Source: Mobula hypostoma
Taxonomy: Eukaryota
Direction of reading: 5' to 3'
NCBI RefSeq assembly: GCF_963921235.1
Contig: NC_086097.1
Coordinates: 18,168,001 to 18,232,000, forward strand
DNA: 64,000 nucleotides
Under the pieces are notes generated by a model. That model was not told where the DNA came from and searched no databases. It saw nothing but the letters and a program-made list of their open reading frames with translations. The translations under genes and the position numbers were made by a program. Below are positions 1,010 through 59,258 of the stretch, piece after piece. Numbering within the stretch: position 1 is the stretch's first letter; each line of letters starts with the position of its first letter.

Positions 1010-1510
1010 AAGGAATAAACAATTGATGTTTCAGGCCCTTCGCCAGGACTGGGAAGGAAAGGAGCAGAAGCCAGAATAAAAAGGAGGAGGAGGGGAAGGA
1101 GTAGAAGCTGGCAGGGGAGACCAGGAGAGGGGTAAGGTAGGTAGGGGAGGGGAGATGAAGAAAGAAGCTGGGAGGTGATAGCTGGATTAGGTGAATGTTG
1201 AAAAAGAAGTTATCTGATAGGAGAGGACATTGGAGCATGGGAGAAAGGGAAGGAGGTGGGACACTAGAGGGAGGTGATGGGCAGGTGAAGAGAAGAGAAG
1301 GGGTAAGAGGTGAGACAGAATGTGGAATAGAAAAAGACTGAAGGGGAAGAGGAGTTATCGGAAGTTAGAGAAATTGATGTTCATGCATCAAGTTGAAGGC
1401 TACACAGGCAGAATATGAGGTTTTGCACCTCCAACTTGAGTGTGGTCTAAACGTGAGACCATGGACCAACACGCTGAAATGAGAATGGAAAGTGTGGCTA
1501 ACAGGAAATC
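1010..1510 (-). mobile_element. Penelope-like element 3' fragment with degenerate hammerhead motif
   Basis: Purine-rich tract matches reverse complement of 40200-40520; minus strand reads CAGTCCTGGCGAAGGGCCTGAAACATC near 1025-1051. Confidence 0.7.
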
Positions 1511-1654
1511 CCATAACAGCATGGTCCTCAGTCTCCCCCCTCTGTGTCCAGCATCTGCAGAATCTCTTGTGTTTGAAACTTCCAGGATTAGAAGTTTACT
1601 AAGATCATTGTATAGGTTTAAGGAAATTCCTGACTCGTGTCCAACAGAAGAAAG

Positions 1655-2048
1655 CACAAACAAGAGAAAATCTGCAGTTGCTGGAAATCCAAGCAACACA
1701 CACAAAATACTGGAGGAACTCATAGTCATAGCATAGTCATAGTCATACTTTATTGATCCTGGGGGAAATTGGTTTTCGTTACAGTTGCACCATAAATAAT
1801 AAATAGCAATAGAACCATAAATAGTTAAATAGTAATATGTAAATTATGCCAGTAAATTATGAAATAAGTCCAGGACCAGCCTATTGGCTCGGGGTGTCTG
1901 ACCCTCCAAGGGAGGAGTTGTAAAGTTTGATGGCCACAGGCAGGAATGACTTCCTATGGCGCTCTGTGCTGCATCTCGGTGGAGCTCAGCAGGCCAGGCA
2001 GCTTCTAGGAAAAGAGTACAGTTGACGTTTCGGGCTGAAACCTGCATC
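1655..2048 (-). mobile_element. Penelope terminal-repeat fragment interrupted by a LINE 3' end (1723-1980)
   Basis: TCTGCAGTTGCTGGAAATCC...GGAACTCA resumes GGAGCTCAGCAGGCCAGGCAGC; insert begins with (TAGTCA)n tail and TTTATT. Confidence 0.7.
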
Positions 2049-2637
2049 TTCTCTCCACAGTAGTCATTTAATCCCTCCTCACATTCTGGAGTAAAATGAT
2101 AAATTGTATTGGTTTAAAGGTTTAATTGGAAACCTACTCAGATTCACAATTAAGTTAATAATCAAGTAATCTTCAAAAAAGTGTTATGAGAAGGGACTTA
2201 AGTAGACATCCCTATAAGTAAAGTAAATAAGTCATCCCCCAATGTCCTCCAAACAGTAATCAAAGGGACTAGATACTGTAGCTGTGGAGTTAATTTCAGG
2301 AATCAAAAATAAACAATCTGCCTTTGAGCCCCTTGTTAATACTTTGGTTGATTGTAGCAAACCTGATACTGAATTATTTATGGTCAATCTGATCTGGCTC
2401 AGCATTCACATCTGACAGCACTCATTTTGACTATTGAAATAAATGAGCATTAATAATTCAAACATTAATAAGTGCTTCAGCAGTTGTGAATTATAATTTT
2501 ATTTCACACTGACAGACTTTACTCACTGCTAGGAATGATTTGTATCGGCCAAGGATTGTTATGCTGTGCTGCAGGCCTGTTGTGGTGAGTGGAATTGTTC
2601 ACCCCTCCACAGACGACATAAAATTTGTGGAGTTTTA

Positions 2638-2901
2638 GATGCTGTAGAGGTGCAGTGGTATCAGTGCTGGACTTCGGGGCGAGAGGTCCCAAGTTCGAAT
2701 CCAGCCAGCACCCTTGCACGCTCTCCATCTGTGCTGGGTTAAGAGCTGGTGATATATTTTAAAAAAACTCACCCGGCAGAAGGTAATGGCAAACCACTGC
2801 TGTACTGTTCCTCGTACATGATTTCCCAATACGTCAGAGCCGCGTGGAAGGAAATTTCCCGCTAAATGGAAAATTCCGGATGCCACATACCTTTCCTTTC
2901 C
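2638..2901 (+). mobile_element. tRNA-derived SINE with RTE-type body
   Basis: tRNA-like head with A box and B box (GTTCGAATCC); GAAGGTAATGGCAAACCAC motif typical of RTE-mobilised SINEs; (CCTTT)n tail. Confidence 0.7.
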
Positions 2902-2929
2902 AGAGGGCTGTTAATGGATGAAGCAGTAT

Positions 2930-6730: not shown

Positions 6731-7748
6731 TTAAACGGCGACCCCTTTGCTTGCATCTTTGCTTGTCAAACACAATGCCAAATTAAACTCAATTGCTTCT
6801 ACCCACACGGTCTCATGCTAAACCTCTTTTGTACCCTTTCAAAAGCCTCCTGAGATGGAGGCAACCAGAACTTTACTCAATGTTTTACACAATTCAAACT
6901 GATAATTTTTCTATCATATAGCTACTTTCTGCAGTATTGTGCAATGGGATTGAGGGATGCATGCAAAATACAGACTCTCATTCAAGGACTCTACAACTCA
7001 TGTCCTCAGCATTATATATTTACTTTTTTATTATTTGCACAATTTGTCTTCCTTTACATATTGATCGTTATTTATAGTTTTCATAAATTCTATAGTATTT
7101 CTTTATTTCTGTGTAAATGCCTTCAAGGAAATGAATCTCAGCGTGGTATATGCTGATAAATCATGCCACAGAAACTGACATAAGCACCGGCCTGATGGGC
7201 CACAAGGCTCGGGACAGACTTTGACTTTGATATGCTGATAAATAGAGTCCGTACTTTGATAATAAATTTATTTTGAACTTTGAACAGTAGGTTGAAGCAT
7301 TCAACACCAGGTTTGGATCCTAGAGTGACTGCAACGTAAGAACTTCCCACAGTCACTAAAAAGTGTATCAATGCCTGTCTTTGATATTCAGAGCTAATCT
7401 AGTGTGTTTAATCAATTTAAACTCAGTGAGCTGGTATTCTTAAATGATAAAATAGGCTGAAGTCAGCATAGTTTCCTCGAGGAAAAATCTTCCCTGACAA
7501 ATCTGTTGAAATTCTTTGAAGAAATAACAAGCAGGATAGACAAAGTAGAATTGATGGATGTTATGTACTTGGATTTTCAGAAGGCCTTTGATAATGTGCC
7601 ACAGATTAGGTTGATTAACAAGTTAAGAACCCATGGTATTACAGGAAGGATACTAGCATGGATAGAGCTTTGGCTGATTGGCAGGAGGCAAAGAGTGGAA
7701 ATAAAGGGAAACTTTTCTGGTTGTCTACTGGTAACTACAGGTGTTCCA

Positions 7749-8062
7749 TAAGACCAGAATTAGGCCATCTGGCCCATCCCATCGAGTCTGCTCTGCCATT
7801 CAATTATGGATGATCCTTTTTTCTTATCCTCCCCAACCCCAGTTCCCAGCCTTCTCCCTGTAATTATTGATGCCATGTCCAATTAAGAACCTATCAATCT
7901 CTGCCTTAAATACACCCAACGACCTGGCCTCTACAGCTGCAAGTGGCAACAAATTCCACAAATTCACGACCCTCTGGCTGAAGAAATTTCTCTGCATCTC
8001 TGTTTGAAAGGACGCCCCTCTATCCTGAGGCTGTGCGCTCTTGTCCTAGACTCTCCCACCAT
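7749..8062 (-). mobile_element. CR1 3' end inserted antisense (continues ~10135-10205)
   Basis: CATAAGACCAGAATTAGGCCAT tail on reverse strand; homologous to 45556-45900. Confidence 0.75.
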
Positions 8063-8064
8063 AA

Positions 8065-18865: not shown

Positions 18866-19409
18866 ATCAGTTGGTTGATTTGTGAGGTATCGTGTGCTTC
18901 TTGGAGTGCAACGTCAAGTACAAGTTAAACAAATACACACATAGGTGTCTGTCGCAGAAGTTACACCAGCTGTCTTCATGCCCACCGTGAATTCCTTCTT
19001 TAATGAATTTCAGATCTTGGTTGTCAGGAATAGAAATGCAAACACCATTCAATTGAAAACACAATTCACCTGACACAAAAATAAATGTTTACATGGTTCA
19101 AACCTCCTGTGGTGAATGTTTTTTTGACAAACAAGTGGGCTCTACTGTTTTGTGGGAAGGAATTGCTCTGTAGGTTTTGAAAAGGCAGCAACATTGAGTG
19201 AGAAAGCTGTTGTGGAGGCATCTAGGCCAACAGAGAGTATAGACCCTCCTGTGACTCAAAACCTGTAATCTAGGCAATTATCTTTTATAGCCCATCTAGT
19301 TACCAAGTCAAATCACTATCTATACTATCAGTGCCCCTCGTAAATTTGTATACCTCAGTCAGCACCCTCTCTTCTTCCCCATTTCAAGGAAAACAAACTT
19401 AACATATCT

Positions 19410-19573
19410 AGCAACACACATTAAAGTTGCTGGTGAATGCAGCAGGCCAGGCAGCATCTCTAGGAAGAGGTCGACTGTACCTCTTCCTAGAGATGCTGCC
19501 TGGCCTGCTGCATTCACCAGCAACTTTGATGTGTGTTGCTTGAATTTCCAGCATCTGCAGAATTCCTCGTGTT
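19410..19573. repeat. Penelope-derived inverted repeat (62-bp arms) with target-site duplication
   Basis: Arms 19410-19471 and 19479-19540 with one mismatch; flanked by TTAAC(A/G)TATCTAG on both sides. Confidence 0.85.
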
Positions 19574-20599
19574 AACGTATCTAGTCTGTCCTCATAGGGT
19601 CTTAGAGCACTACAGAACTGAAATAGGCCCTTTGCCCTGTTTAGTTCATTTCAAGTCCCATCTACCTACAACCATAAGACCACAAGACATAGGAGCAGAA
19701 TTAGGCCATTCAGCCCATTGAGTCTATTCTGCCTGGACCCTAGCCCTCCGTACCTCTCTCACCTATGAACCTATCCAAACTTCTCTTAAATATTACAATT
19801 AAACTCACGGCTACCACTGCTGCCAGGAGCTGGTTCCACACCCGCACTGCATTCTGACTGCAGACATTCCCCCTCAGGTTCCCCTTTCACATTTCACCTT
19901 TCACTCTAAACCCTACGACCTCTGGTTCTAGTCTCATTCGCCCTATCAAGAGACACCGGGGGCTGCAGATGTTGGAATCTGAAGCATTCAACAACAAACT
20001 CAGTACAACTCAACAGATCAGACAGCACCTGATGGGTCATGACCTGAAACGTCATCTGTCCATTTCCCTCCGTAGGTCCTGCTTGTCCTGCTCAGCTTAT
20101 TCTCACAACTGAAATACTCAAACCCAGTCAATATCCTGGGGAGTACCTTCCCTACTTTCTCAGTGCAATCGCAACCTTCCCATTGTGTGTGGGCAGATCT
20201 CCACTCAACATTTCAGCTGTGGTCTCGCTGATCTGATTCATAACAAAGGATATATACTTTGATAATAAATGCACTTTGAACTATTCTTCACCCCAGTTAA
20301 TGAAGGAAGTACCTCATATGTCTTATTGACCACCTTATCCATCTGTGTTGCTGTTTCAGGGACCCTTGGACGTGTACATCAAGGTTCCCCTGTTCCTCAG
20401 CACTTTGAGGAATTGTGTATTTCTTAGTCTTATTAGTTCTCCCAAAATTCATTATGTCACATTTACAGAATTAAATAGCGCCTACTATTTCTCTCCCATT
20501 TTATCAACATACCAATACACGTCTTTAGCTGAAGGCACTGTCTATAACACCATCAAATGTTATGTCATCTATGAACTTACATACAGATCCATATTCTTA

Positions 20600-23957: not shown

Positions 23958-24224
23958 CCCTGCTGAACGAAATGATGACTATATTCTTTTCCATAGATGC
24001 TGCCAGACCTGCTGAGTTTCTCCAGCATTTTGTGCATGTTGCTTGGATTTTCAGCATCTGCAGATTTTCTCTTGTCCCTCTCCCAAGTCCTTACTCTTAA
24101 CTCGACCTATTATTTTTCCCCAACAGCCTAAGCAATTGTGTTGTGAAAGCCCCAATTAACTCTGTTTGTAGCAGCATGTGGCTGATGATAGATGCTGCTT
24201 TCAGGGTGAAAACAGTTTAAATCT

Positions 24225-24845
24225 TCAACATCTCCTTAAAAAGTTAGCAGGTCAGTCAGCATCCATGGAAACGAATAGTCGATGTCTCAGGCCGAGATCC
24301 TTCTTCAGGACTGAAAAAGAAGGGAGAAGGTCCAGAATAAAATGGTGGACGAGGACAGGAAGGAGGCAGGCTGGAAGATAATAGGTGTAGCCAAGTGGGT
24401 GGGAGAGGTCAAGGGTTGGAGAAGAAGGAATCTGATAGGAGAGGAGAGTGGACTACAGGAGAAAGGGAAGGAGAAGGCAGCACAGGGGAAAGTAATAGGC
24501 AAGTGAGAATAGGTAAAGTGTCAACAGTGTAGAATAGAGGAGGGGGCGGTGGGAAAGAAGGGGGGAGTCCACCTCCCTCTCCTAACATATTCGTTCTTCT
24601 CCAGTCATTGAGCTTTCCAAGCCACCTAGTCTCACCTATCACCTTCCAGTCAGCCCAGTCAGCCTCCTTCCCCTCCCGCCACCTTTTTCATTCTGGTCCT
24701 TCCTTTACACTTCTGAAGAAGGGTCTCGGTGTGAAATGTCGACTATCTATTCATTTCCATAGACGTCTTACCTGCTGAGTTCCTCCAGCATCTTGTGTGT
24801 GTTGTTTTGGATTTCCAGCATCTGCAGATGTTATAGTGTTTATTA
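24225..24845. mobile_element. Inverted pair of Penelope terminal-repeat fragments, each with a degenerate hammerhead motif
   Basis: Minus motif 24277-24312; plus motif CTGAAGAAGGGTCTCGGTGTGAAATGTCGACT ~24713-24744. Confidence 0.7.
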
Positions 24846-29262: not shown

Positions 29263-30297
29263 TTATCCCAATAATGTTTGGGCTGGTCGGTAATTGGCCA
29301 TTGTACATTGTGCAGTGTACAGGTGAGTAGAAGAGTCTGGGGAGAGTTGATGAGAATGTGGGACAATAAAATGGGATTAGTGATGGTCAGCTTTGGCTCA
29401 ATAAGCTAAAGGGTCTGTTCCCTGCTTCGTACCCCCAGCTCTGTCTGCACACCCAGCTTGCACTCACCCTCTGGATTAATGGGTGAGCCAAATACTGGAA
29501 CATCACGACCCCCTAACAACTGGATACTGGTCTATCAGAGCTTTACTGCGTGTACTTATCTTTAAATAAAGCAGAATATTTCTTTCAAACCCTTGAAGTG
29601 ATAGAAAAGCCGATTTCTGCCTTGTTGATCAAGCTGACAGTGATGTTTTAATCGCTGCTGGGTGGTGCGGCTACTTAAAGAACCTAAAGCTAGCAAGAGC
29701 AGTTTGGACAGAAGGCTGTCAAACTCCCTACGTCTGAACTCCGGCCAGAACCGTCTCACTCACATCACTTAAAAAGTCATTATATTATGCTGCCTCGATC
29801 AAGTAATCTTTCTTTTAATTATTTTGGAAAATGTTTAATCTTGGTTAGACTGATTTGCATACCGAATTAAAGTCTGATTGGAGTTAATTACTCACTGCAA
29901 ACAGAAGAAGCCTCATTACTGGAAGCAATTTAACAAATTTGCTATTAATACCAAGCCTTTCTTAGTAAAGTGAAAACTGGGAGAGGAATTAAAAATTATA
30001 GTTGCTTACAATATCCAACATCCATTTCCCAAGATGAACTGCTGACGTGCCAAGCTGCCTGGTTAATAGATGGGTAGGAAATGCACCCAGAGCAGCTTAC
30101 AGCTTTATTCTCAGCCAGAAATATCCGCTCTTTATTCCTCTCCATAGAACCTGCCTCCTCTGCTGAGATCCTCCAGCATTTTGTAGGTGTTGCTCTGGAT
30201 CTCCGGCATCTGCAGGATCTCTTGTCTATATTACAGCTTTGTTCTCATCTTTCCCGAAAGCCAAAGAAGAAATACTCTTTGGATATTTGGAATACTA

Positions 30298-30959: not shown

Positions 30960-31262
30960 TTTCCTTCTCCCTGGGCCTTCTGTCCCACAATCCTCTCATA
31001 TCCCTTTTGCCAATCACCTGTCCAGCTCTTGGCTCCATCCCTCCCCCTCCTGTCTTCTCCTATCATTTCGGATCTCCCCCTCCCCCCCCACTCCCACTTT
31101 CAAATCTCTTACTAGCTCTTCTTTCAGTTAGTCCTGACGAAGGGTCTCGGCCCAAAACGTCGACTGTACCTCTTCCTAGAGATGCTGCCTGGCCTGCTGC
31201 GTTCACCAGCAACTTTGATATATGTGCTTGAATTTCCAGCATCTGCAGAATTCCTTGTGTTT
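30960..31262 (+). mobile_element. Penelope terminal repeat fragment
   Basis: Pyrimidine-rich tract, hammerhead-like motif, then GATGCTGCCTGGCCTGCTG...CCAGCATCTGCAG tail. Confidence 0.8.
31130..31165 (+). ncRNA. Minimal type I hammerhead ribozyme motif (core G of GAAA mutated to A)
   Basis: AGTC-CTGACGA-A-GGGT-CTCG-GCCC-AAAA-CGTC-GACT; stems I and II intact. Confidence 0.65.
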
Positions 31263-31299
31263 GCTTCATCATCAACCTCGCTTTCAATCCCAAACTTGA

Positions 31300-31640
31300 A
31301 TATGCGGCAGTTGGTAAAATTCCATCTTCCTCAGAATGTACCGGTGCAATTCTACACTGCCATCATAGAGACCATCCTCACACCAGCCATTATTGTCTGG
31401 CTTGCTGCAGCATCCTCTCACAATATACAAAAACTACAGAGAACTGTCGGGCCAGCAGAGGGGGTCATTGACTGCTGTCGACCATCACTGCAGGAATTGC
31501 ATGTGCCTAGGTCAAAGAAGCAGGCAAGAAAAATCATTGAGGACACCACACACCAAGCAAACTGCCTTTACCAATACCTCCGTCTACAGGGCTATTAAAA
31601 CAAAAAACACATCATCTTTAAAGTTGCTTCCCACAGGGAA
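31300..31640 (+). mobile_element. Rex/Babar RT C-terminal fragment
   Basis: QFYTAIIETILTPAIIVWLAA...QKLQRTV...RSKKQARKIIEDTTHQAN. Confidence 0.7.
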
Positions 31641-31646: not shown

Positions 31647-31795
31647 CTCGGCCTGAAACGTCAACTGCTGAAGGGTCTCGGCCTGAAACGTCGACTGTAC
31701 TCTTTTCCATAGATGCTGCCTGGCTGCTGAGTTCCTTCAACATTTTGTGTGTGTTGCTTGGATTTCCAGCATCTACAGCTTTTCTCCTGTTCGTA
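31647..31795 (+). mobile_element. Penelope terminal repeat with partly duplicated hammerhead motif
   Basis: CTCGGCCTGAAACGTCAACTG-CTGAAGGGTCTCGGCCTGAAACGTCGACTG. Confidence 0.7.
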
Positions 31796-32232
31796 TTCTA
31801 ATCAGTCATTCTAGTTTACTGCACATCTACCTCTTTCTATTACCCCTGTCACTGTACTGCACTGTAAACACTTCAAACCACAAAATGTTGACTGTTTATT
31901 CATTTCCATAGAGGCTGCTTGACCTGCTGAGTTCCTCCAGCATTTTGTGTGTGTTGCTTTCGGTTTCCAGCACCTGCAGACTTTCTTCTTGTTTACATTG
32001 CTAATATATGCTGGTATTCATGTACTTATGCATATTTTATCTGTGCTTGAACTCCTTACTTTATTTTTTATATAATTCTTTATTTTTTATAATTGTCGAA
32101 TGTTGCTGTTCTTTGTTGCATGTGGTTCCCTGACCAACACCATGTCAAATTCTAAATACATATCAATGTATATTCAAATCAAGTTGATCCTTGATATAAT
32201 GTCATCTTCCTAAATTTATAGAACATTTTGTT

Positions 32233-32505: not shown

Positions 32506-33494
32506 CTTTACAAGCAAGTTGATGCCCAGACAAAACAGTGAGAATCTAAATTAGAAAGAGACAGAAAAATTATAGTAGATAGTTGATCTGAAGTGTTTGA
32601 TTTGTTCTCTCTCCACAGATACCGGTTGTCCTGCTGAGCTTTTCCAGCTTTTTTTTCCTGGTTCATTTGTACCTTAGACCTTTTTAATTTCAAAAATAGA
32701 CTTTATTTATAGTAAAAATAGACACAAAGGAAGAAACCTTTGCGTAGTTTAGTAGTTTTACTTCTTTAACTCTGCCCTTCCCCATGAGGATGATATCACA
32801 TCTGTAGAGAAAGAATCTGACAGTGGGGCCTCCGTCACTGAAAGGTCTTGGTGCTTGCTAGTGAGATTTGATGATGAGGCGTTGTGCCAAGTGGCCATCA
32901 TGATTTCCAGCATCTGTAGAATTTCTTGTGTTTATGATGCAACCAGGCAGGATATCTGTGCAGCTATAGAAGCCTGTCAGCTTTAAATGACATGCTGAAT
33001 CTGTGCAAACTTTAACGGAAGTGGAGGCTTCTTTGCAATGCTGTGACTTCTCTGTAATGGCACTTATGTGCTGGAACATCTGACACAATAACGCTAAGGA
33101 ATTTAACGTCATTGACCTCTCCATCTCTGATCGCCTAATGAGGACTGGTATAAAATTCTGCTATAAGTTTTAGGTGTTCTAGGTGTGCTCAGTGTCATGC
33201 AATCAGGAGTATAAAACTGAAAGTCATACGACGACTGTGAAAATATAGCTGACCATTTTGAAAATGATCTAATCGAAGGTGGTGGTGGAGAAACCCCCTC
33301 AGTCTCTCAACACCATTCTGTGTGTTTAGTTTCCTGGGTCCTGGAACATGATTCCCTAGAGGCTGTATCATAGTGATTTTGGCAAACGGAAAACCTTGTC
33401 TGTTCTCCTTCCATTGTCAGTGTTTTGTTGTTCATGTTCTTGTGTGTAACATGTTTAATTTCCAAATCTATCCTCCTACTACTTCAGATGATTA

Positions 33495-33760: not shown

Positions 33761-34879
33761 GTGTTTCAACCATGATTGAATTGTGGAACAGACTCAATGG
33801 GCCAGATGGCCTAATGTCCACTGCTCCTCTGTCTTATATAAGCCTCTGCAAGTTTTGCATTACTGTACCTGCTTTAATTAAACTAATTACATTTTCAATC
33901 ATTAAATTCAGTTATTTTTACATTTCCAGAAAACTGATTACTTACGTTAAATTTTGTTGTATGATTAATTCTAGAATGCTATTTTACGGACACCAAATTT
34001 GATTCACTAGGCTTGTAGATTTATGATGACATTCAGAAGCTGAGACCTTGATATCCCACGAACACACAGAAATCCTTCACTCAATAGAGAGACTGATGAG
34101 GAAGAAGACAAATATAGCATATACTGGATTAATAGTAACACCAGAATTAGAAAGCACACTGTGTTCCTCTGATGACTGGTATTTCAGATTTTCCAAAATA
34201 TAAATGTTCCCAAAGATTATTGAAATGACTACATTTAGTCTTGTTTGGTGAAAATGGTCTGGATTGTGATCGGTCACACCCACCATTCACACTCTCTGGC
34301 TATGTTGTTCCCAAAGCTACACTTACACTAATGGTTTTCCGGGTAAAAACACACTCCAGTCTCATTACTGCAGACAATCCACAGGCCAAGATGGTCTATG
34401 AGTGGAGACTACATGGCAGTTTCTGAAGTATCCCTCCCGCCTTCCCCCCCCTCCAAGAACTGCACAGACAGGCTTTTGCTAGCTCTCTCCCCTTCATCGT
34501 TTGTAGATAACCTCTCCCCCCCGCCCACCTGGGTCCACCTATTACCTGCCAGCTCTTACTCCACCCCTTCCCTCCACTTTCTTGTACTGGCTATCTCCCC
34601 CCTTTCTTTCAGTCCAACTGAAGGGACTTTGCCCAACACATTGACTGTCCATTTCCCTCCATCGATTCTGCCTAATCTGCTGAGTTCCTGCAGCACCTTG
34701 GGTGTTGCCTTTTCATAACTCACCACTGTTAAATGATCTTATCTACTTTTATATGTCAATAATAAACAGAAACATTTAGCAATAAGTCATGATTTTAAAA
34801 AATACTAAAATATTATAAAGGAAATAAAAATGCATTTACTTAAAATAGTTTGACAGGAAATAATTCGAAACATTAAATC

Positions 34880-36122
34880 TGAGGTTTTATATGGCACTTG
34901 GAATATGGTGAGCAGTCTTGGGCCCCTTATCTAAGAAAGGATGTATTGGCATTGGAGAGGGTTCAGAGTAGGTTCACAAGAATGACCCCAGAATGAAGGG
35001 TTAATGTATGAGGAGCATTTGATGGCTCTGGGCCTGTATTCACTGGAGTTTAGAAGAATGAGGGGTGATCTCATGAAACCTAATGAATATTGAAAGGCCT
35101 ATATAGAGTGGACATGGAGAGGATTTTTCCTGTAGTGGGGGAGTCTACTACCTCTTGTGGCCTCAGAGTACAAGTTTTCTCAGATTGAGGCATTGAGGAC
35201 ATGAGCCCATGATTAATTCCAGTGCTTCTCTCTGAATGAGACTGCGAGGGTGTGAGCTCATGTTTGATTCCATTGTTTCTTTCCAACTGAGGTGCCGAGT
35301 GAGGATGAAGTCAATGAGGACAAGAGTGGAGAAGAGGCAGGTGTTCTACGCCGTTTCCCTGCATTTGACTGGTTTTTCTCTCCTTCTCAGCTGGCGTCAG
35401 AAGAAATTTCAGGAATCTTGGGAGCACACACAAGATGCTGCAGGAACTCAGCAGGCCAGGCAGCATCCACGGAAAAGAGTAAGCAGTCAATATTTCGGGC
35501 CGAGACCGAGTGATGGGGAGTCTTGGGATCCACTTTGCAAGGATTGATCGACAAGGCTATTGACTCGTTTTGGGGGACTTTGAGGTGCATGTTGCATGTG
35601 TTTTGGGGTTCTGGTAACTTTTTTTTTATTGTTCTTGAGTGGTTTGAATGGGGCAATTGATGCAGACTGGGGCACTTTGGCGAAGAATGATCCGGTGGCC
35701 TGCAGTGGGCTAGTGGTGTGGCACTGAACTGAACTAAACTGAATACCACTGGAGTCCCACTTTGACCTTTGATATTCTATGTCCTGTTCGCTTGCTATTT
35801 GCACCATTTGTTCTTTCTTCACGCGTTGGGTGTTTGATATTTTCTTTCGATGGGTTCAATGGTGTTTCTTTGTTTCATGGCTGCCTGCAGGAGGATGAAT
35901 ATTGGAGTTCCATTCTGTTTACAAAATGTACTTTGAATCTTTATATTTAAAGCAGAGGATGATAGGTTCTTGATTAGTCAGGGCATCAAAGGTGGTGGGG
36001 AGAAGGCAGGAGAATGGCGATGAGGAGGATAATAAATCAGCCGTGATGGACTGGTGGAGTAGACTCAGTATGCCCGTGCCAAATGGCCTAATTCTGCTTC
36101 TATGTATTATGGTCTTATGGTT
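34880..36122 (+). mobile_element. CR1 3' part interrupted by a non-autonomous element and a Penelope fragment
   Basis: CR1 RT C-terminal DNA 34880-35170 resumes at ~35942 to the GGTCTTATGG tail. Confidence 0.65.
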
Positions 36123-38485: not shown

Positions 38486-40575
38486 TTTCCAATCCTGATG
38501 AAGGGTCATGGGCCATAATGTATACTTTTATCCCTCTCGTTGATGCTGCCTGACCTGCTGAGTTCAGTGTGCCTGCAACTCTCAGACATCTCCCCTTACT
38601 TACCGCTTAGAAAAGACCCCAAACTGGACCATCAGAAAATTGTCCCTGACACCATCACTAACCTCATGAACTCTGGGTAACTTTGCCACAAGATTCATAG
38701 TTCCCTTACACTGCACTGTTCATCTCTACCTAGTACCCAAGATCCATAAACCTGAGTGTCCAGGTAGGCCCATTGTGACTGCCTGCTCCTGCCCCACTGA
38801 ACCTGCCTCAGCATACCTTGACTCTATAACAGCCCTCCCCGCACTTGGTTCATTCCCTTCCTACCTACGTCCGCAACACTACACATGCCCTTGGTCTCTG
38901 CAACAACTTCTAATTCCCTGGCCCTATCCACCCCATTTTCACCTTGGATGCTCAGTTCCCTATACATTTCTCTCCCTTATCAAGAAGACTAACACTTCTC
39001 TGCCTCTTTCCGAACAAAAGACCAAAGCAGTTTCCCTCCGCCACCACCCTTCTCTGTATGGCAGAATTGGTCTTCACCCTCAACAATTTCTCCTTCAGCT
39101 TCTCCCACTTTTCCAATTCACGGGGTAATCATAGGTCCCAGCTATGCCGAACTTTTTGTTGTCTACATAGAGCAGTCCATGGTAATGCTCCCTGGGTATT
39201 CCTCTGCTACACTGATGACTGCATTGGTGCTGTTTCACGCACCTTGCTGAGCTCATCAGCTTCATCAACTTTACTTCCAACTTCCACCCTGTCCTTAATT
39301 TCACTTCGTCCATTCCTGATACCTCTCCACTTTCTCGATCTCTCTGATTCCATCTCTGGTGACAAATTGTACCGATTCCCACAAATATATTGACTATACC
39401 TCTTCCCACCCTATCTCCTGTTAAAATGCTATTTCCTTTCTCAGTTCCTTTGTCTCCGCTGCATCTGTTCCTAGGATGAGGCTTTCCTTTCCAGGACATT
39501 AGAGGTGTCCTTCTTTTTCAAAGAATGGAGTTTTCCTTCCTCCACCATTGATGCTACACTCATCCACATCTCCTCCATTTCCCAGACAATCATGCTCAGC
39601 TCATCTTCCCGTCAACTTAACAGGGATAGAGTTCCTCTTATCCTTACCTACCACCCCATGTGCCTCCGCATTCACCACACCATTCTCCACAACTTCCACC
39701 ATCTTCCACCAAACACATCTTTACCTACTCCCCCTCACCACCACTACTCTCCACTTTCCTCAGGGATCACTCCCTCCAAGATTCCCTTGTCTATTTGTCC
39801 CTCCTAACTAATGTCCCTCCTGGCATACATCCCTGCAAGTGACAGGAATACTACACCTGCACATTCATCTCCTCCCTTACCTCTATTCAGAGCCCCAAAT
39901 AGTCATTCCTTGTGAGGCAACATTTTACTGGCAAATCACCTGGGATTTTCTGTTGTAACCAATGCTGCCAATATGGCCTCCTCTACATTGGTGAGACCTG
40001 GCATAAACTGGGGGGCCACTTTGTCAACTATCTTTGCTCCATCCACCAAAAGTGGAATTTCCCAGTGGCCAGCCACTAAATTCCTATCCCCATTCCATTC
40101 CAACATGTTGGCCCTTGGCCTCCTCTTTTGCAATGGTGATGGCACTCTCAGGGTGGAGGAACAAAATCTCATATCCTGTCTAATTAGCCTCCAACCTTAT
40201 GACACGAATATTGATTTCTCCTTTCTGTACTTTTCCCTCCCCTCCCCTTTTTTTCTATTCTGCACTTGGAGCTCTTACCTCTTCTCCTCACCTGCCTGTC
40301 CTCCTCCGGTGTCCCTCCTCCTTCCCTTTTCCCTATGGTTCACTCTCCACTCCTACCAGAGTCCTTCTTCTCCAGCCATTTACCTTTCTCACCAACCTGG
40401 CTTCACCTATCATCTTCTAGCTAGTCCTACTTCCTCTCGTCCCACCTTCTTAATCTATGATCCTCCCCACTTCCTTTCCAGTCCTGATGAAAGATCTCGG
40501 CCTGAAATATTGACTATTTGTTAACTTCCATAGATGCCGCCTGACCCGTTGAGTTCCTCCAGCATTTTGTATGCG
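38486..40575 (+). mobile_element. Penelope-like element: decayed RT and GIY-YIG endonuclease bracketed by direct terminal repeats
   Basis: YLVPKIHKPECPGRPIVTACSCPTE (~38727-38800); LVFTLNNFSF; YTDD; CCQYGLLYIGET (~39963-39998); terminal repeat copies 38486-38567 and 40470-40575. Confidence 0.9.
40480..40515 (+). ncRNA. Minimal hammerhead ribozyme motif at Penelope 3' terminal repeat
   Basis: AGTC-CTGATGA-AAGATCTCGGCCT-GAAA-TATT-GACT; core boxes intact, stem II degraded. Confidence 0.55.
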
Positions 40576-40589
40576 CTACTATTGAAATT

Positions 40590-41552
40590 TCTGCTGAGGT
40601 GGTTCTCCAACAGGCACATTGCCATGGCTTCCACCAGACCGGGACCAGACTGGGACCCACAATTCATCTCTGTCTTCTAGTAAGCGTTCTGCTCCTCCCT
40701 TTGCACCACCACGAGTCTGTCCTCTTGGCTACCATCTGCAGACCAATGAACAGTCAGAAGGAGCCAATCAGCAAGTGGAGAAGTTTCTGCAAAGCTTCAT
40801 TGCCTCTTAGCGCTTCCACATGGAAGTAGAATCTGCTCTGGGCCAAGTGGCCCCAGAATCTACACACCTCCTCTGCCATGGGCATGACTCCCTTTGAAGT
40901 GCTTCATGGTCACCAAACCCATTGTTCCTCTGGTTCAGCACTGCTAGAGTGCTTGGAAGAGGGCCACTCCACCCACCTGAGCATGTACTCCTTTAACCTA
41001 GGATGGTGGAAGATGGTCCAGTGCACGCAGTTCGTTGGTTGGTGGACTCACACCATCGTGGATGTGAGATGCAGGACCCGGTCAAGTGGGAAGGGTATGA
41101 CCCCAAGTGGAGGTCTTGGGTGACATCAAGTTACATCTTGGATCCATCGCTCCTCAAGGAGCTCAACCGGACCAATCCAGTTTGTCCCTGGGCCATTGGG
41201 TCCGATTGTAAAGGGGGCAGTGGTGTGAAATCCTGTCAGACCTGCACAGACAGGCACCTCTTAGTCTGCACTCAGCTAACAGGAGTCACCTGCCACTCAT
41301 TTCCAACTCATCACCTGCAGCCTGTTTAATTATTCTTATCCACAATCATTTACTCATACAAACTAGCCAGCCTCAACCAGTTGTTCCTAGCCTTCACTTA
41401 CCTTGTTGCCTTGTTGTGTGTAAAGTATCTGTTCTCATTCTGAGTGCCCTCATGGCTTGTTATTTTTCAGTTTATAATTAAAGTTATTACTCACCGCAAA
41501 ATCATCTCTGCCGCCCTGTGTTTGAGTGAAGCCTCTGCAACATTTCCTGACA
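40590..41552 (+). mobile_element. Gypsy chromovirus remnant: integrase, chromodomain, PPT and 3' LTR (41224-41552)
   Basis: GYHLQTNEQSEGANQQVEKFLQS integrase; VKWEGYDPKWRSWVTSSYILDPSLL chromodomain; AAAGGGGGCAG purine tract then TG...CA. Confidence 0.8.
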
Positions 41553-50300: not shown

Positions 50301-51235
50301 TCATTTGTAGGCCTCCAAGATGTGGGGTTGAGATTGCAAAGGAAGCTGGAAAAGGCATGTAATAAGGGTAATGTCACAATTGTAATGGGGAACTTCAATA
50401 TGCAAGGAGACTGGGAAAATCAGGTTGCTGTCAGATCGCAAGAGAGGGTATTTGTTGAATGCCTACGAGATGGCATTTTAGAGCGGCTTGTGCTTGAGCC
50501 TAAATGGCGAAACGTTATCCTAGATTGGGTGTTGTGTAATAATCCAGATTTTATTAGGGAGCTTAAGGTAAAGGAACCTTTAGGAGACAGTGATCATAAT
50601 ACGATTGAATTCATACTGCAATTTGAGAGGGAGAAGCATAAGTTAGATGTATCAGTATCACAATGGAATAAACAGAATAAAGACAACTGTGACTGACAAG
50701 GCAAGTTAAGGACTGCATAAAATCCAAGGAAAGGGCATGTAAGGTAGCAAAAGTGAGTGAGAAGTTGGATGATTGGGAAGCTTTTAAAATCCAACAAGAG
50801 GCAACTAAAAGGGCTGCAAGAAGGGAAGGATGAAATATGATGACAATGTAAAGCAGGATTCTAAACATATTTTTCAGTTATATAAAGAATAATGGGAGGT
50901 GAGAGCTGATATTGGATCACTGGAAAATTATTCTAGTGAGGTAGTAATGAGGTGGGGGGAGGACAAAGAAATGGCAGATCAGCTTAGTAAGTACTTTGCA
51001 TCAGTCTTCACTGTGGAAGATTCTAGCAGTGTGCCAGAGGTCCATGAGTGCCAAGGTGTCATAAGGGGGTGCTGGGAGCGGACCCAAATGCAAGACAGAG
51101 ACACTGCAGTTCTAGGAACAGGACTTGGTGTGTCAAGAAAGCAAGGAAAGTGGGGAGGAAAGGACACTGGACATTGACACAGGCCCTCGACGAGACTAGG
51201 ATGCAGGGCCTGGGCTAGGACATGGACAGGAAACA

Positions 51236-52640: not shown

Positions 52641-54628
52641 TAACTCCAAACAATGACAGACTGTTCTTCACACAGCAAGGCCCCAGTCTTGCTCTGGCAG
52701 ATGAACTTGACAGCGTTACAGGCGAGGACGCAGGCAAGGTTTCAGGCAATGCTTCAGGCCAAGGTTGCAGGCAAGGCTTCAGAAGGAAGGGAAGGGAACA
52801 GTCCAGCCCATAAAGCTGAACCCATGAGCTATTTATGTAGCCAGCCCAAAATGAAAATCAGGTGCCTCAATTGAGGCACCCCAACAGAACAAGGGAAAAC
52901 TGGAAAACCTGGAATAAGGATCGGTGGACCAGACCATGAACCAGAATGCGGACTTCACGGACCGGACCATGACACAGGGAGCAGGAGTGATTACCATTGC
53001 TATTACAAAGGAAAAAGTTCCAGGCAACCTCAAAGGTCTTAAGGTGGGTAAGTCATGAGGACTAGATGGGCCACATCCCAGAGTTCTGAAAGAGGTTGCT
53101 GAAGAGATAGCAGATGTATTGATCATGATCTTTCAATAATCATTTGATTCTGGCATGGTTCCAGAGGACAGGAAAATTACAAATGCCACTCCACTCTTTA
53201 AGAAGGGAAGAAGCAAAAGAAAGGAAATTATAGGCCAGATAGCCTAACCTCAGTGGTTGGGAAAGTCTTGGAGTCCATTATTAAGGATGAGGTTTGGGGA
53301 GACTAATGATAAAATAAGTCAAAGTCAGCATGGTTTCTGTAAAGGGAAATCCTGCTTGACAAATCTTTGATGAAATAACAAGCAGGGTGTACAAGGGGGA
53401 GGCAGTGGATGTCGTTAACTTGGATTTTCAGAAGGCATTTGATAAGGTGCCACACATGGGGCTGCTTAACAAGGTAAAATCCCATGACATTACAGGAAAG
53501 CTATTAGCATGGATAAAGGAATGGTTAACAGGGTGACAGGCAGGAGGCAGTGAGTAGGAATAAAAGAGGCCTTTTCTGGTTGACTGGTAGTGACTAGTGG
53601 TGTTTCTCAGGGGTCAGTATTGGGACCACTACTTTTCACATTGTTTGTCAATGATTCAAAGCATGAAATTGATGGCTTTGTGGCAAAGTTTTCAGATGAT
53701 ACGAAGATAGGTGGAGGGGTAGGTAGTGCTGAGGAAGACATAGACAAATTGGAAGAATGGGCAAAAATGTCGCAGATGGAATACAGTGTTGGAAAATGTA
53801 TGATAACGCATTTTGGTAAAAGGATCAAAAGCGCAGACCATTATTTAATTGTGGAGAAAATTCAAACATCAGAGGTGCAAAGGGACTTGGGAGTCCTTGT
53901 GCAAGATTCCCAGAAAGTTAAGTTACAGGTTGAGTCTGTGGTGAAGAAGGCGTATGCAACGTTGGCATTTATTTAAAGGGGAATAGAATATAAAAACAAG
54001 GAGATAATGCTGAGGCTTTTTAAGACACTAGTCAGGCCACACTTGGAGTATTGTCAACAATTTTGTGACCCGTATCTCAGAAAGAATGTTTTTGCCATTG
54101 GACTGAGTCCAGAGGAGGTTCACAAGAATGATTCCGGGAATGAAGGAGTTAACATATGTGGTGCGTCTGGCATCTTTGGGCCTGCACTCACTGGAATTTT
54201 GAAGAATGCAGGGGAATCGCAGTGAAGCCTAACGAGTGTTGAAAGGACTAGATAAGGTGGATGTGGAGAGGATGTTTCCTCTGGTGGGGGTGTCAAGAGC
54301 TAGAGGGCACAGCCTCAAAACTGAAGGGCGACCTTTTAGAATAGAGGTAAAGAATATTTTTTCTTTAGCCAGAGAGTAGTGAATCTGTGGAATGCTCTGC
54401 CACAGACAGCTGTGGAGGCCAAGATTGTGGGTATATTTAAAACGAAAATTGATAGTTTCCTGATTGGTCAGAGCATCAAAGGTTAGGGCGAGAAAGCATG
54501 TGTATGGTTGAATGGGATCTGGGATCAACCATGATGGAATGGTGGAGCAGACTCGATGGGCTGAATGGCCTAATTCTGCTCCTCTGTCTTATGGTCTTAT
54601 TGTCTAAGACCTCCACTCAGACGATGGC

Positions 54629-55534: not shown

Positions 55535-57364
55535 AACTTCTAATACCTTCCCTATGAGTTACTCTATATTAAACTAAATAACTTGGTTTCCTGTTTTCTT
55601 CCTCCATCCTTTTCTGTATTTCATTTGATCTGAGTAACATTTTCTGTTTTCCAATAAAATGGAGCCTCCATTGTGTCGGAGGAGTTTTGGAACATTCAAC
55701 CCATTGCATCCTCATTCTCACCAGTCACTCCTTTTAGATCCTGGACTGAAGTCCGTTAGGAGTAAGAGATTTATCAACTCACAGCTCAGTTTGCTCCATG
55801 CTACTGCCCTGGTGATTATCATTGTTCAGAATTCCTGCATCCAAACCAATTTCTGATTTACAGTTATTACTGGAGTGTTATTAAGTTCTCTAAAGTGCAA
55901 ACTGATACAAACTACCTGTTTAATTCATGTGCTATTTCCTTGGTTTCTAAAATCAATTCTCCAAACTGACATTTTGTTCAATCTTTTAAAATTACCTATA
56001 GAAACTCTTATTATCTGTTTTTAAATAATTTCTGGTTTCTTTTACCTCATATCTATATTTTTCCTTCCTTATTATTTTTAAGTAATTCTTTATGTTTTGT
56101 AGATTTTCTGCATGTCATCTGTTTTATTCTTTCTCATTTGGATGTGTCTACTCTGTATATTCTGAATGTTCTTTAAAAATATATATTTGATCTTTGTGCA
56201 TGTGTATCTGTGTAGTTTTGCTGTCATACAAGGTGCTGATAAGTTTTTGTTCTTTTGATTACTCATTGTGATGTATGTGCATGTGTTTATTCTAACAATG
56301 GGTAGTGCAGGGACAATGAGGTATTATAAAGGTACATGGAGAGTAGCTGGTGCCTTGTCTATTCATTTTCTTACAATAAGGATACTGAGGCTGGAAGCAA
56401 TAGCTAATTACTAAATGAATACAGCATCTGTTGAAACGGTAGTCCTCTTTCCTGGACAAGGACGAGTGTAAACGTTGATGTGGTCAAGTCTTGACAAGAC
56501 TAGAACAAAAAGAAGGGAGCTAAATACCACCAGAACAAAGCGATAATTAGCTGGAGCATGTGTGCTCACAAGCGCAATTGTTGAACCTGCTGAGCAGTCC
56601 GCCTGCGCAGGCGCATAGACGCCACAGCAGAGGCCGTGGGTGTGACAACTACCTTACACGTACAGTACGCATGTGCTATTCTCTCCTGACAATTAAGGCT
56701 AATCAATATATATTGTTTGGTGGTTAGTCAGATTGCACTGCTACTTTGGGACATCCCTGTTCTTCTTCAGAAGGAACACAAATGAGGAATGAGATTGCAA
56801 TTTCACTCAGGCACTGTGTGCAAAATATTCTAAAAGACTGTACTTTGAGCTGAGTCTGGGAGATGCTTTCATTGATAGATGAAACGCTATTTCTTGTGTT
56901 TAATGAGAACGGTGTACAAAGCCAAGGAAGGAGAGGGTCTGAGTCAGGATGGGTGGGGAATTAAATCGACAGACATGTGAAAGCTGAAGACAATGGCTGC
57001 AGGATGAATGGAGGCATTCAAACAGCATCCAGCTATTTTATTAGGCAATTCAATCCAAAGAAATGGCTCTTGTTAGATCGTAGTCTTAGTTATAGCTATC
57101 AATTTTTGCTTTTTCATGGCTAATAGGAACAAGAAATATGGGGAAGGGATAACGAACATCGGTGATGAGCCATGATTACAATGAATGGCAGAGTAGATAT
57201 GAAATGCCGAATGGCCAGCTGGTTTCAACATTGGTTTTATGTTGCTACCAGTCAGGCAAATGAGATGATAAAGAAGAAGGTCACTTGGCTTGTTGAATCC
57301 TTGCCCATTTCCACTAGAGCATAGAGTCATGTATGCCATATCCAAAGAACGTTACATATGCTGT

Positions 57365-57933
57365 CAGTCCCCACTTTTTAGTTACCTCCTGTACCTAATA
57401 AAGTAGCCACTGACTGTATGTTTGTGGTCTTCTGCTGCTATAGCCCATCCACTTCAAGGTTTTTGATGTGTTGTGTGTTCAGAGATGCTTTTCTGCACAC
57501 CACTATCGTAGATTGGTTATCTGAGTTCCTGTCACCTTCCTGCTAGCTTGAACCAGTCTGGCCATTCTCCTCTGACCTCTCTCATTAACAAGGCACTTTC
57601 ACCTACAGAGCTGCTGCTCATTAGATGTCTTTGTTTTATATTTTGCACCATTCCCTCTGAAAACACTAGTGACTGATGTGCATGAAAGTCCTGGGAGATC
57701 CATAGTTCCTGAGATACTCAAACCACCCTGACTGGTACCAACAATCAAAGTCAAACATGGTCAAAGGCACTTGGATTACATTTCCTCCCTATTTTGATGT
57801 TTGATTTGAACAACAGCAGAACCTCTTGACCGTGCTTTTATACGTAAAGTTGCTGCCACTTGATTGGTTGATTAGATATTTGCATTAACGAGCAGGTGCA
57901 CAGATGTTCTTAATTAAATGACCACTGAGTGTA
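57365..57933 (-). mobile_element. Tc1-like non-autonomous element, second copy
   Basis: Reverse-complement homolog of 20600-21013; GTACCTAATAAAGTAGCCACTG and AAATGACCACTGAGTGTA ends. Confidence 0.75.
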
Positions 57934-58769
57934 CACAAATAAGTCTATGGTTTAGTGTTCATAAGATAGAACGGAGAAACAATAATTTAGCTTTGAAGAA
58001 TAGTAAGTCTGTGTCAGGCCAAGCTAAAATTGACATTAATTCAGACTCAGTTTTACGTTCATTCATCCAGTGAATTGTGAAATATAACAGCACAGGGGCA
58101 CAGTTGGCCATTTTTGTAACATGCACAGTACCATAAATTGTAAGGGAACTGGAAATGCCAACCATGTTCTGTCTAATAAGATCACAACACTTGTTCTGTT
58201 ATCTCAGTTCTCGGAGATCCTTCTATCTGAGCCAGCCTTGTGATGCACAAAGTTTTCATAAATGAGCTGAGCTACATTGTTCAGCTGCTGCAGAGGCTGT
58301 GGTATCAGTTACAAAGAGATTTCATTATTCGTACTGCCTTGGTGCCCAGAACGAACCTTCTTCAAGTTCAAGTTAATTGTCATTCAACCATACACGTGTA
58401 TACTGTCAAACAAAACAACTTTCCTCTGGACCAAGGTGCATATAACTCATGTGCAACACATAATGCAATATTAACACAAATAAATCAACAAATAGTAAGG
58501 TGCACTTATGACGCAACTTAAAAAGTAAACAGTATAATGCTACAGATGCTTCATACATAAAGAGATCTGGGTGGTGGCGGGGAGTTCGGTAGTCTCATGG
58601 CCTGGGACCCTTTCTTATGTAGAATTCTTGCTCTCCCACTAGTCTTTCTCTTTGTTCCCTACCATGTAAGGCCTTTTATTTTGGGGTGTATGTCTATGTT
58701 TGTCAGTACATGCGCGAGCATGCATGTGTGTAGCTGCACATGCTTCTGTGTGTGCATATGCGTATGAGC

Positions 58770-59258
58770 ACAAACACAGGAAATTCTGCAGACTCTGGAA
58801 GTCCAGGGCAACACACATGAACTGTTCCTCAGCAGATCTGGCATCTACGAAAATGATTAAACAGTTGACGTTTCTGGCCGAGACTCTTCATCAGGACTGG
58901 AAAGGAAAGGAGAAGAAGCCAAAATAAGAAGGTTTGGGGAGGGGAAGAGGTACAAGCTGGCAGGTGATAGGTGAAATCAGGTGATGGGGAAAGTGAGTGG
59001 GTGGGGGAGGAGTATGAAATGAGAAGCTGGGCAATGATAGGTGGAAGTAGTAAAAGGCTGAAGAAGAATGAATCTGATAGGTGAGGAGAATGGACCGTGG
59101 AAGAAAGGGCAGAAGGAAGGGGAACCAGCGGAAGGTGATGTGCAGGTGAAGAGGAGAGAAGGGGTAAGAAGGGAGCCACAATGGAAAATGGAGAAAGAGA
59201 AGGGGGCAGGAGGGAACAATTTCCAGAAATTAGAGAAATCAATGTTCATTCTGTCAGG
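58770..59258 (-). mobile_element. Penelope-like element 3' fragment
   Basis: Reverse complement of 40200-40575-type sequence (MNIDFSNFW at element ORF end). Confidence 0.8.
58862..58899 (-). ncRNA. Minimal hammerhead ribozyme motif, core intact
   Basis: Minus strand CAGTC-CTGATGA-AGAGTCTCGGCCA-GAAA-CGTC-AACTG. Confidence 0.65.

Follow-up and report, generated by a model that had tools for sequence, protein, structure and literature searches.

Probable minimal hammerhead motifs in 3′ pseudo-LTRs of an abundant Penelope-like element

Hammerhead ribozymes of the Penelope kind have been known since 2014, when minimal hammerheads (min-HHRs) of metazoan Penelope-like element (PLE) pseudo-LTRs were described (Cervera & de la Peña 2014, PMC4209133); the accessible text of that study reports them from Xena, Poseidon and Neptune elements of fishes. 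The family described here is a further case. What the hammerhead does for a Penelope element is called unclear in the available sections of a more recent study of Neptune and Nematis elements (Craig et al. 2021, PMC8557442). For the Poseidon element PAc of Anolis carolinensis, the accessible part of the report (Frangieh et al. 2024, PMC11167929) gives RT initiation 111–118 nt into the ORF and a cut at +26; cleavage was unneeded for insertion in vitro, and no RNA-seq ends lay at the cut site. Our literature search, with most subscription papers outside its range, returned nothing on Neptune PLE hammerheads in sharks or on Penelope in stingray genomes.

We analysed a stretch of 64,000 nucleotides from Mobula hypostoma (the window). 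A profile built from six copies of one repeat family matched 22 fragments at E ≤ 0.05, 13 on the plus strand and 9 on the minus strand, with no match in any of 10 shuffled windows or in the reversed window; blastn added a 23rd short inverted arm at 1547-1575. A sequence-only reading of this DNA had counted about ten full or partial copies. All 11 positions it listed are indeed full or partial copies of this one family on the strands stated, and its count was too low. The 38-nt hammerhead-like motif is overlapped by 17 of the 22 fragments, eight of which cover it completely, from one strand of stem I to the other. Four insertions have inverted partners and one forms a partial tandem, an arrangement described for PLEs (PMC8557442, accessible text). 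The element and its copies are as follows.

38589..40221, plus strand: decayed, 5′-incomplete PLE frame (tblastn, E to 1e-37, with full-length homologues bearing RVT_1 and GIY-YIG)
38486..38566, plus strand: upstream partial pseudo-LTR; in its motif, 38490-38527, stem I is broken and the core carries G12>A and A13>U
40204..40601, plus strand: downstream pseudo-LTR, its motif (40479-40516) about 260 nt past the frame end, with all core letters kept, stem I 4/5 and stem II 3/4
30960..31263, plus strand: young solo pseudo-LTR of subfamily B; best-preserved motif, 31129-31166, its only defect G12>A at 31154
58771..59249, minus strand: subfamily-A pseudo-LTR that includes the last codons of the frame; motif 58862-58899 keeps all core letters, with stem I 4/5 and stem II 2/4
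974..1444, minus strand: frame end and pseudo-LTR; motif 1020-1051 with A6>G and a 6-nt stem II deletion; inverted arm 1547-1575 (plus strand)
1658..2042, minus strand: single truncated copy with its 5′ start in stem II, running 2042-1979 then 1722-1658, with an insert of about 256 nt between the two parts
19407..19573, no single strand: inverted pair of subfamily B; sense arm begins 1–3 nt upstream of the cut site (19472/19473)
19963..20095, no single strand: inverted pair; sense arm begins at about C2.1/C3, motif remnant to 20058
23965..24071, plus strand: short copy without stem II, whose 5′ end could be placed either at the motif start or at position 11.1
24229..24841, no single strand: head-to-head inverted pair with two full-span motifs, 24276-24313 (minus; A14>G) and 24708-24745 (plus; core letters intact, stems broken)
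30109..30225, plus strand: short copy, 5′ start in stem II
31647..31790, plus strand: partial-tandem stub 31647-31667, joined to a copy from C3 (31665-31790); A6>C, 5′ strand of stem I absent
31882..31986, plus strand: short copy, 5′ start at about position 11.1/12
34520..34705, plus strand: old copy; motif 34610-34647 with five core defects
35417..35507, minus strand: short copy, 5′ start in stem II
32899..32933, plus strand: tail-only fragment, motif absent
63942..63991, minus strand: tail-only fragment at the window edge, motif absent

The PLE frame comprises an RT part (about 38589-39756), the remnant of a Cys linker and a GIY-YIG endonuclease (EN; about 39702-40221), with many stops and frameshifts. 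RT followed by EN is collinear with homologues having PF00078 and PF01541, the closest named of which come from one stingray and one bamboo shark. Three linker Cys residues are conserved at 90% or more in 38 homologues, and the window remnant retains two of them; via these homologues the element shows the Neptune/Nematis traits, a CX2-5CxxC linker between RT and EN and CCHH in EN. Two family copies (38486-38566 and 40204-40601) flank the frame, and within the element the motif sits some 260 nt beyond the end of the frame, with about 100 nt left to the 3′ end. Because the RT–GIY-YIG remnant adjoins it, the family can be assigned to a Penelope pseudo-LTR, the location that the sequence-only reading had proposed. 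Judged by sequence, then, the repeat family is the 3′ pseudo-LTR of an endonuclease-bearing (EN+) PLE, with RT plus GIY-YIG at the C-terminus, pseudo-LTRs flanking the frame and four inverted pairs as hallmarks. Among some 16 insertions, three extend as far as the end of the frame. Thus the copies are mostly ORF-less fragments, as had been suggested, but they are truncated PLE insertions and not an independent unit with fixed ends. The high copy number claimed for the family is borne out by about 100,000 contigs per DNA run aligning to one 360-nt copy. Exact-pattern scans of viral, metagenome and prokaryote collections gave 0 matches in each.

Taken by column majority, the copies reproduce the consensus of the sequence-only reading: a 5-bp stem I, CUGANGA, an extra A, a stem II of 4 bp (including a U-G pair) closed by a 4-nt loop, then GAAA, the palindrome A15.1-C-G-U16.1 and the GUC triplet. 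The family majority thus has the core of a minimal type I hammerhead (CUGANGA, GAAA, UH), with helices I and II in type I order, and stem III is replaced by the palindrome, the majority at 15.2-16.2 being CG, which forms ACGU with no loop 3. Core and helices are complete together in no single window copy. The extra nucleotide between 9 and 10.1 is A in 10 of 11 copies and G10.1 is present in nine of 11; position 11.1 is C in six, T in seven and A in two of 15. Within the family, variation that might support the helices is limited to U-G in place of C-G where stem I ends. Between families both partners differ in 9 of 11 pairs, a count that is partly circular, as 6 of the 13 rows compared were chosen by a pairing descriptor.

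We consider it extremely improbable that this likeness is due to chance or is an assembly artefact. An Rfam scan of the window returned no hammerhead match even at E ≤ 1 (its two matches are hairpins under the gathering score, one of them a weak mir-2 match at 19407..19573), and the z-score of the 38-nt fold is only -1.7 against shuffles. However, matching sequences are absent from the shuffles, the same architecture occurs in distant PLEs, and contigs of two organisms carry the family. Shuffle controls, related PLE loci and the subfamily comparison together refute such a reading.

The sequence-only reading had named beforehand, as grounds for its refutation, core boxes conserved no better than their flanks. 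Across subfamilies, the motif outlasts the flanks: in the B and A consensus sequences 27 of 28 non-CpG motif letters are identical, against 13 of 38 (34%) directly upstream and 26 of 38 (68%) directly downstream. Among window copies, the corresponding figures are 96/105 for the non-CpG core and 928/1126 for the 3′ flank (Fisher p=0.02). Moreover, 13 of 80 related PLE loci contain 14 hammerhead motifs with differing stems, while 20 shuffles contain none. A descriptor requiring neither the extra A nor the palindrome still recovered the extra A in seven of nine matches and palindromes in all three longer loops. On the other side, descriptor matches were confined to those 13 of the 80 related loci, and a strict descriptor matched only 5 of the 35 loci having the frame end plus 500 nt. 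Since the motif is kept across subfamilies and recurs in related loci, we infer selection in active elements, and motif conservation would reflect selection on the masters. The element's last 20 nt are likewise conserved in the subfamily comparison (17/20), so conservation by itself is no proof of catalysis.

None of the eight full-span window copies is intact, as the sequence-only reading had noted, and a structure descriptor found no match in the window. Three copies (24708, 40479 and 58862) keep all 11 invariant core letters with broken stems, and that at 31129-31166 departs solely by G12>A. CG survives in 8 of 13 copies in loop 2, in 3 of 15 at 11.1-12, in 6 of 17 at 15.2-16.2 and in 5 of 17 at 17-1.1; most losses are to TG, CA or TA, which agrees with the CpG decay suggested earlier. 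Furthermore, none of the 14 tandem-repeat rows of the window is an array of the repeat unit, so that no cis partner is supplied for its copies. Since all of them are broken, the dispersed copies of the window are likely inert truncated insertions. With no intact copy, no array and 5′ ends off the cut site, the earlier idea of a very large ribozyme population is unsupported in its functional sense.

Contigs, the only form in which four sequencing runs were available (X22 and X23 are guessed to be RNA), give a broader view of the family. In all four runs the majority letter equals the catalytic letter at every listed motif position, and catalytic G12 accounts for 83, 77, 89 and 92% of contig depth. 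C11.1>U makes up 29-58% of contig depth and weakens the conserved G10.1-C11.1 pair. The two guessed-RNA runs show fewer CpG-type losses than the DNA runs do. This difference, together with the very high copy number and the predominance of intact core letters in the young fraction, might suggest that the host retains many copies as working ribozymes, cutting intronic or non-coding transcripts in trans dimers. We regard such retention as very improbable: besides the defects of the full-span copies, the G12 and cut-site CpGs decay like other CpGs, and the RNA–DNA difference is explicable by contigs dropping rare variants. Nor did Pfam reveal a host exon in the window, where 24 of the 38 frames of at least 120 aa and 65 shorter non-repeat frames gave LINE-type domains or sub-threshold matches only.

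The ends of the insertions bear on what the motif does. In a post hoc count, 9 of 19 window 5′ truncation points fall within the 38 nt of the motif, every one of them upstream of the cut site, and the motif holds about five times more 5′ ends per base than either side. None of the 19 lies at the cut site itself; they range over model positions 274-309 and beyond. The 3′ ends fall at model positions 401-411 in 11 of 22 fragments, which places them 90-102 nt beyond the cut site in fragments aligned at both; in the copy at 30960..31263 the predicted cut site is 31161/31162 and the 3′ end lies 102 nt downstream. Loose contig ends pile at 31262-31264 in four of four runs, and the cut site is absent from the six best-supported loose-end places of every run. 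Related loci offered few paired repeats; the two inverted partners among them begin outside the motif, at 46 and 113 nt upstream of C3. By the window data, cut RNA is not the usual insertion template, which agrees with what was found in vitro for the anole element; the data also hint at the folded motif as a limit on copy length.

In keeping with motif conservation between the subfamilies, A-type contigs depart from the B copy exactly at 31130 and 31167. Among the rows listed, the loose ends before 31130 and 31131 (agreement 0.32-0.45) are a mixture of real junctions and divergence between subfamilies. We rejected a joint 31161-31232 (X5, X22, X23) as a cleavage signature: it begins at the cut site but has one contig per run, and it belongs to a series of similar joints (31156, 31163, 31165 and 31167 to about 31230) of the sort that diverged A-type middles should give. 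Among the matches listed, no joint or loose end supports a splice-acceptor idea.

The short copies could instead form a separate non-autonomous family, retrozyme- or SINE-like, spreading via ribozyme-cut and possibly circular RNA. Most insertions are indeed ORF-less and 100-300 nt long, with 5′ ends concentrated in the motif, and hammerhead retrozymes are reported from one chondrichthyan genome in the accessible text of 10.64898/2026.07.22.740005. We nevertheless find this improbable, because the 5′ ends are scattered, no tandem array is present, the sequence aligns collinearly with the 3′ end of the PLE, and helix III is minimal, unlike the canonical retrozyme form. A less remote alternative, though still one we doubt, is that active elements keep the motif as a landmark of folded RNA (for docking a protein, or as a promoter or transcript start), cleavage being vestigial or dispensable. 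The lack of 5′ ends at the cut site in the window fits this, as do the absence of that site from the six best-supported loose-end places of every run and the unaffected insertion of catalytic mutants of the anole PLE in vitro (PMC11167929); according to the available text of PMC8557442, Naiads without canonical hammerheads still proliferate. Against it, the letters constant across families are the catalytic ones, the NUH triplet and the palindrome while the stems vary, and related motifs cleave, weakly, as dimers (PMC4209133) or with protein (PMC11167929), as far as the accessible parts of both reports go.

Fold prediction, whose models leave out core tertiary contacts, counts against the reading favoured below. 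In the monomer minimum-energy fold G5-G8 pair with C15.2-C17 (predicted -12.9 versus -8.9 kcal/mol for the open fold); for the self-duplex, an overlapping GUCGAC palindrome is predicted at -10.3 against -3.1 for ACGU; and in a 204-nt context stem I has a predicted probability of about 0.02. Overall, we are fairly confident that the motifs are mutated minimal type I hammerheads from the 3′ pseudo-LTR of a highly amplified PLE, that active elements likely self-cleave slowly, as a dimer or with protein help, and that the dispersed copies here are likely inert truncated insertions. By way of the ACGU palindrome, two motifs would form a common helix III of 4 bp and be cut after GUC, whereby tandem transcripts would be processed. 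Reverse transcription would start about 100 nt downstream on uncut RNA and usually stop early, often within the folded motif, leaving solo and inverted copies of 100-300 nt. Decay of 4-5 CpG sites after insertion, visible as a pattern in the copies, then hits G12, stem I and helix III. More tentatively, the uncut folded hammerhead (or an internal transcript start) may set the 5′ boundary, reverse transcription from about 100 nt downstream ending in the motif and never at the cut site. The ribozyme would thereby generate a SINE-like class of 100-130 nt, which would have filled this vertebrate genome with tens of thousands of hammerhead cores at the least, and a master lineage may have swapped C11.1 for U, removing the CpG that destroys catalytic G12.

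With its very many dated insertions, a cartilaginous-fish-type genome is a resource for asking what purpose the hammerhead of Penelope elements has: the boundaries of insertions can be set against the cut site, and conservation between master lineages can be compared with neutral decay. Set beside the min-HHRs, as far as the accessible text of PMC4209133 describes them, the family shares the type I topology with a helix I of 4-5 bp, the nucleotide between 9 and 10.1, the G10.1-C11.1 pair, the palindromic 15.2-16.2 and the absence of loop 3. The pattern is shared as well: most copies solo, some in opposite-strand pairs 100-700 bp apart, few in full elements. It differs in its short 4-bp helix II and frequent U11.1, in its host group (the available part of supplement file 2 contains no shark or skate term) and in an apparent density far above the 4,000 (coelacanth) and 9,000 (Xenopus) motifs reported there. 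Animal non-LTR retrozymes (Cervera & de la Peña 2020, PMC7229834; Li et al. 2026 preprint), judging by the accessible text, likewise combine a type I hammerhead, non-coding sequence, PLE relationship and high copy number, but they are tandem repeats with a hammerhead in each unit, whereas the copies here are dispersed, truncated and minimal. Retrozymes are recognized by complete hammerheads in at least two consecutive tandem units; the window has neither an array nor a complete motif. PAc also carries its hammerhead in a pseudo-LTR, and there, as here, the 3′ end lies roughly 90-100 nt past the cut site and inserts are not bounded by the cut site (PMC11167929, accessible part). PAc belongs to the Penelope/Poseidon clade and its frame starts in stem II, whereas the homologues here have the Neptune/Nematis Cys linker. 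There is also a likeness to the Neptune/Nematis EN+ PLEs as outlined in the available sections of PMC8557442: the window frame is decayed, but its homologues share their C-terminal GIY-YIG, CX2-5CxxC linker and CCHH, and the family shows the same heavy 5′ truncation, inverted 5′-truncated partner and hammerhead in the pseudo-LTR.

By sequence criteria, the 38-nt motif is a minimal type I hammerhead (min-HHR) of an EN+ Penelope-like element (PLE), and it would work like one. Six copies of the repeat were used to make a nucleotide profile, which picks up 22 fragments in the window (13 on the + strand, 9 on the − strand); neither the reversed window nor any of 10 shuffled windows gave a match. 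Each of the 11 positions picked out in the sequence-only reading proved to be a full or partial copy of this one repeat. Because the fragments include four inverted pairs, one split copy and one copy with a tandem stub, we grouped them by eye into ~16 insertions. Seventeen fragments overlap the motif and eight span it whole. The consensus proposed earlier is the column majority over the window copies, and the remark that no copy is perfect holds as well, as every one of the eight full-span copies carries a defect. In three, all invariant core letters are kept and the stems are broken; the sole defect of the best-kept copy (31129-31166) is at G12. An Rfam scan of the window did not detect the motif.

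The proposed location in Penelope terminal repeats was borne out, with one repeat copy after an RT-GIY-YIG frame and a partial copy before it. This frame (38589-40221) comprises RT followed by GIY-YIG endonuclease, is frameshifted, and is collinear with full-length homologues bearing Pfam RVT_1 and GIY-YIG; its nearest named proteins are from Hypanus sabinus and Chiloscyllium punctatum, which makes a cartilaginous fish the probable host. The motif lies ~260 nt downstream of the frame end, and insertions 974-1444 and 58771-59249 contain the last codons of the frame. Homologues of the frame possess a three-Cys linker, a feature of Neptune and Nematis according to Craig et al. 2021 (PMC8557442). 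Judged by this linker rather than by a tree, the window PLE appears Neptune-like. Half of the fragments (11/22) have 3′ ends at model positions 401-411; in fragments aligned over both points, these ends lie 90-102 nt downstream of the predicted cut site. Loose contig ends at 31262-31264 in four sequencing runs mark the same 3′ end. Among distant PLE loci, L010 (1005-1133, 3536-3663) and L074 (2323-2517, 3952-4137) carry an inverted upstream copy of their hammerhead-bearing repeat.

Self-repeats cover ~26 kb of the window, which also contains many LINE fragments, presumably CR1-type:
7443-9470, 22871-23948, 45556-47165, 49299-50696, 53002-54609, 61824-63640: LINE fragments with RVT_1, endonuclease and esterase-like domains
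1723-1978: a Penelope fragment is split here by a ~256-nt insertion that has a short tandem tail; the break shows an overlap of 9 nt
31116-31598 (+): 160-codon open frame that crosses the best hammerhead copy and enters a LINE remnant, probably by chance; weak ALKBH8_N match, seen too at 26528-26788
42779-42979: inverted repeat, long and nearly perfect, and as such probably a small transposon of the inverted-repeat type; Rfam MIR8643 match far below gathering score
52113-52641: tandem repeats with periods of 30 and 66

The repeat occurs as two subfamilies, A being old and B young; the B copies at 19470 and 31159 share 95% identity. The expectation that the core is better conserved than its flanks across subfamilies was upheld: within the motif, 27/28 non-CpG positions of the B copy agree with the A consensus, as against 13/38 just upstream, 26/38 just downstream and 17/20 at the very end, with gaps scored as mismatches and the B copy itself included in the profile. 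It is at the edges of stem I that A-type run contigs diverge from the B copy (before 31130, after 31167). Pooled non-CpG identity is 96/105 in the core vs 928/1126 in the 3′ flank (Fisher p=0.02). Of 80 related PLE loci from metagenome contigs, 13 contain motifs recognised by a descriptor (14 motifs in all), which found nothing in 20 shuffles. Stems of these motifs are entirely different; the extra A (7/9 strict-descriptor matches) and palindromic loops are nevertheless present, neither being required by the descriptor. Most related loci gave no match (strict descriptor, 5/35 matching among those with the frame end and 500 nt beyond). The number of changing pairs over 13 rows, a partly circular count, exceeds that in all shuffles. 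Hammerheads with a longer palindromic loop 3 (4-6 nt) occur near PLE frames in L026 (4478), L040 (1496) and L055 (1175), with 1-1.5 kb separating some of them from the frame that was matched.

CpG decay, also suggested earlier, is evident in that motif losses cluster at CpG sites; CG is retained at the four motif sites in 8/13, 3/15, 6/17 and 5/17 copies, and the window CpG observed/expected is 0.29. In each of two DNA runs (X1, X5), ~100,000 contigs match one 360-nt copy (85% likeness), and the depth summed over the motif is ~7e5 times that of single-copy flank, which is not a copy number. Dividing summed depth by the 31-fold contig-word overlap suggests a rough floor of 2e4 copies. Full-span motif density is 125/Mb, if the window is representative. 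The idea of a very large ribozyme population, taken in the functional sense, was not supported: the dispersed window copies are without intact cores, and no tandem partners were found for them.

Variant shares in run contigs are weighted toward young, recurrent variants. Among the matches listed, most of the depth at position 12 has G (X1 83%, X5 77%; 89% and 92% in X22 and X23, runs guessed to be RNA), and remaining CpG-type losses amount to 7-17% in DNA runs. C11.1>T (window 31153), which turns the closing pair into G-U and leaves catalytic G12 outside a CpG, reaches 40 and 29% in DNA runs and 56-58% in guessed-RNA runs among the matches listed. Since this share (29-58% of depth) is far above that of other CpG-type changes, it may mark a master variant, although among old window copies T is no commoner at 11.1 (7/15) than at 15.2 (7/17).

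Nine of 19 5′ truncation points fall inside the motif; three further fragments extend into the frame. Per base at risk, truncation occurs at a rate of 0.018 within the motif, compared with 0.0036 downstream of it and 0.0034 on the upstream side (binomial p=0.0008, a post hoc test on coordinates set by hand, one end being ambiguous). For well-detected fragments only, inside vs downstream alone gives p=0.025; recall of planted fragments was 10/10 from 50 nt and 3-4/10 at 30-40 nt. This pile-up may reflect RT stalling or a transcript start. None of the 19 window 5′ ends lies in the first three motif bases; contig loose ends are present at 31130-31131, and in distant loci two inverted partners begin outside the motif. 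All nine in-motif points precede the cut site, which the nearest approaches to within 1-3 nt, and the site is absent from the six best-supported loose-end places of each run. The usual template is therefore uncut RNA.

Full-span copies, including 31100-31131, 40450-40481 and 58897-58930 (−), have a long pyrimidine tract ending in CAG at the stem I 5′ strand (CAG then TAG in subfamily B). It resembles a splice acceptor, with AG retained in 6/8 copies; no spliced junction at this site was seen among the run-contig matches listed. Cervera 2014 (PMC4209133) describes a Drosophila Penelope intron ending at helix I.

Helix III is absent, and therefore a lone motif is unable to form the active junction, as is established for min-HHRs: according to PMC4209133, the Schistosoma monomer did not cleave, and dimers and trimers cleaved weakly. 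Two motifs could share a 4-bp helix through the ACGU palindrome. Folding models, which leave out core contacts, favour a monomer rod with G5-G8 paired to C15.2-C17 over the open fold by 4 kcal/mol, and predict that a competing GUCGAC duplex is stronger than ACGU. Cleavage that is slow or assisted by protein, as reported for PAc of the anole (PMC11167929), would agree with these predictions. On balance we lean toward cleavage as the selected role of the motif in master elements.

The family was rejected as a retrozyme because the required tandem arrangement was not found in the window; hammerhead retrozymes are described for one chondrichthyan genome in a 2026 preprint (10.64898/2026.07.22.740005). 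We did not find this family in rays, or truncation at the motif, described in the literature searched, a scope outside which lie repeat databases and supplement file 1 of PMC4209133. Overall, it is highly probable that these are mutated min-HHRs in the pseudo-LTR of an amplified PLE, of which active elements likely cleave and dispersed copies are likely inert. In its partial tandems, its inverted and truncated partners and its constant 3′ end, the window family follows the pattern described for PLEs, and PAc likewise has uncut RNA as its usual template.
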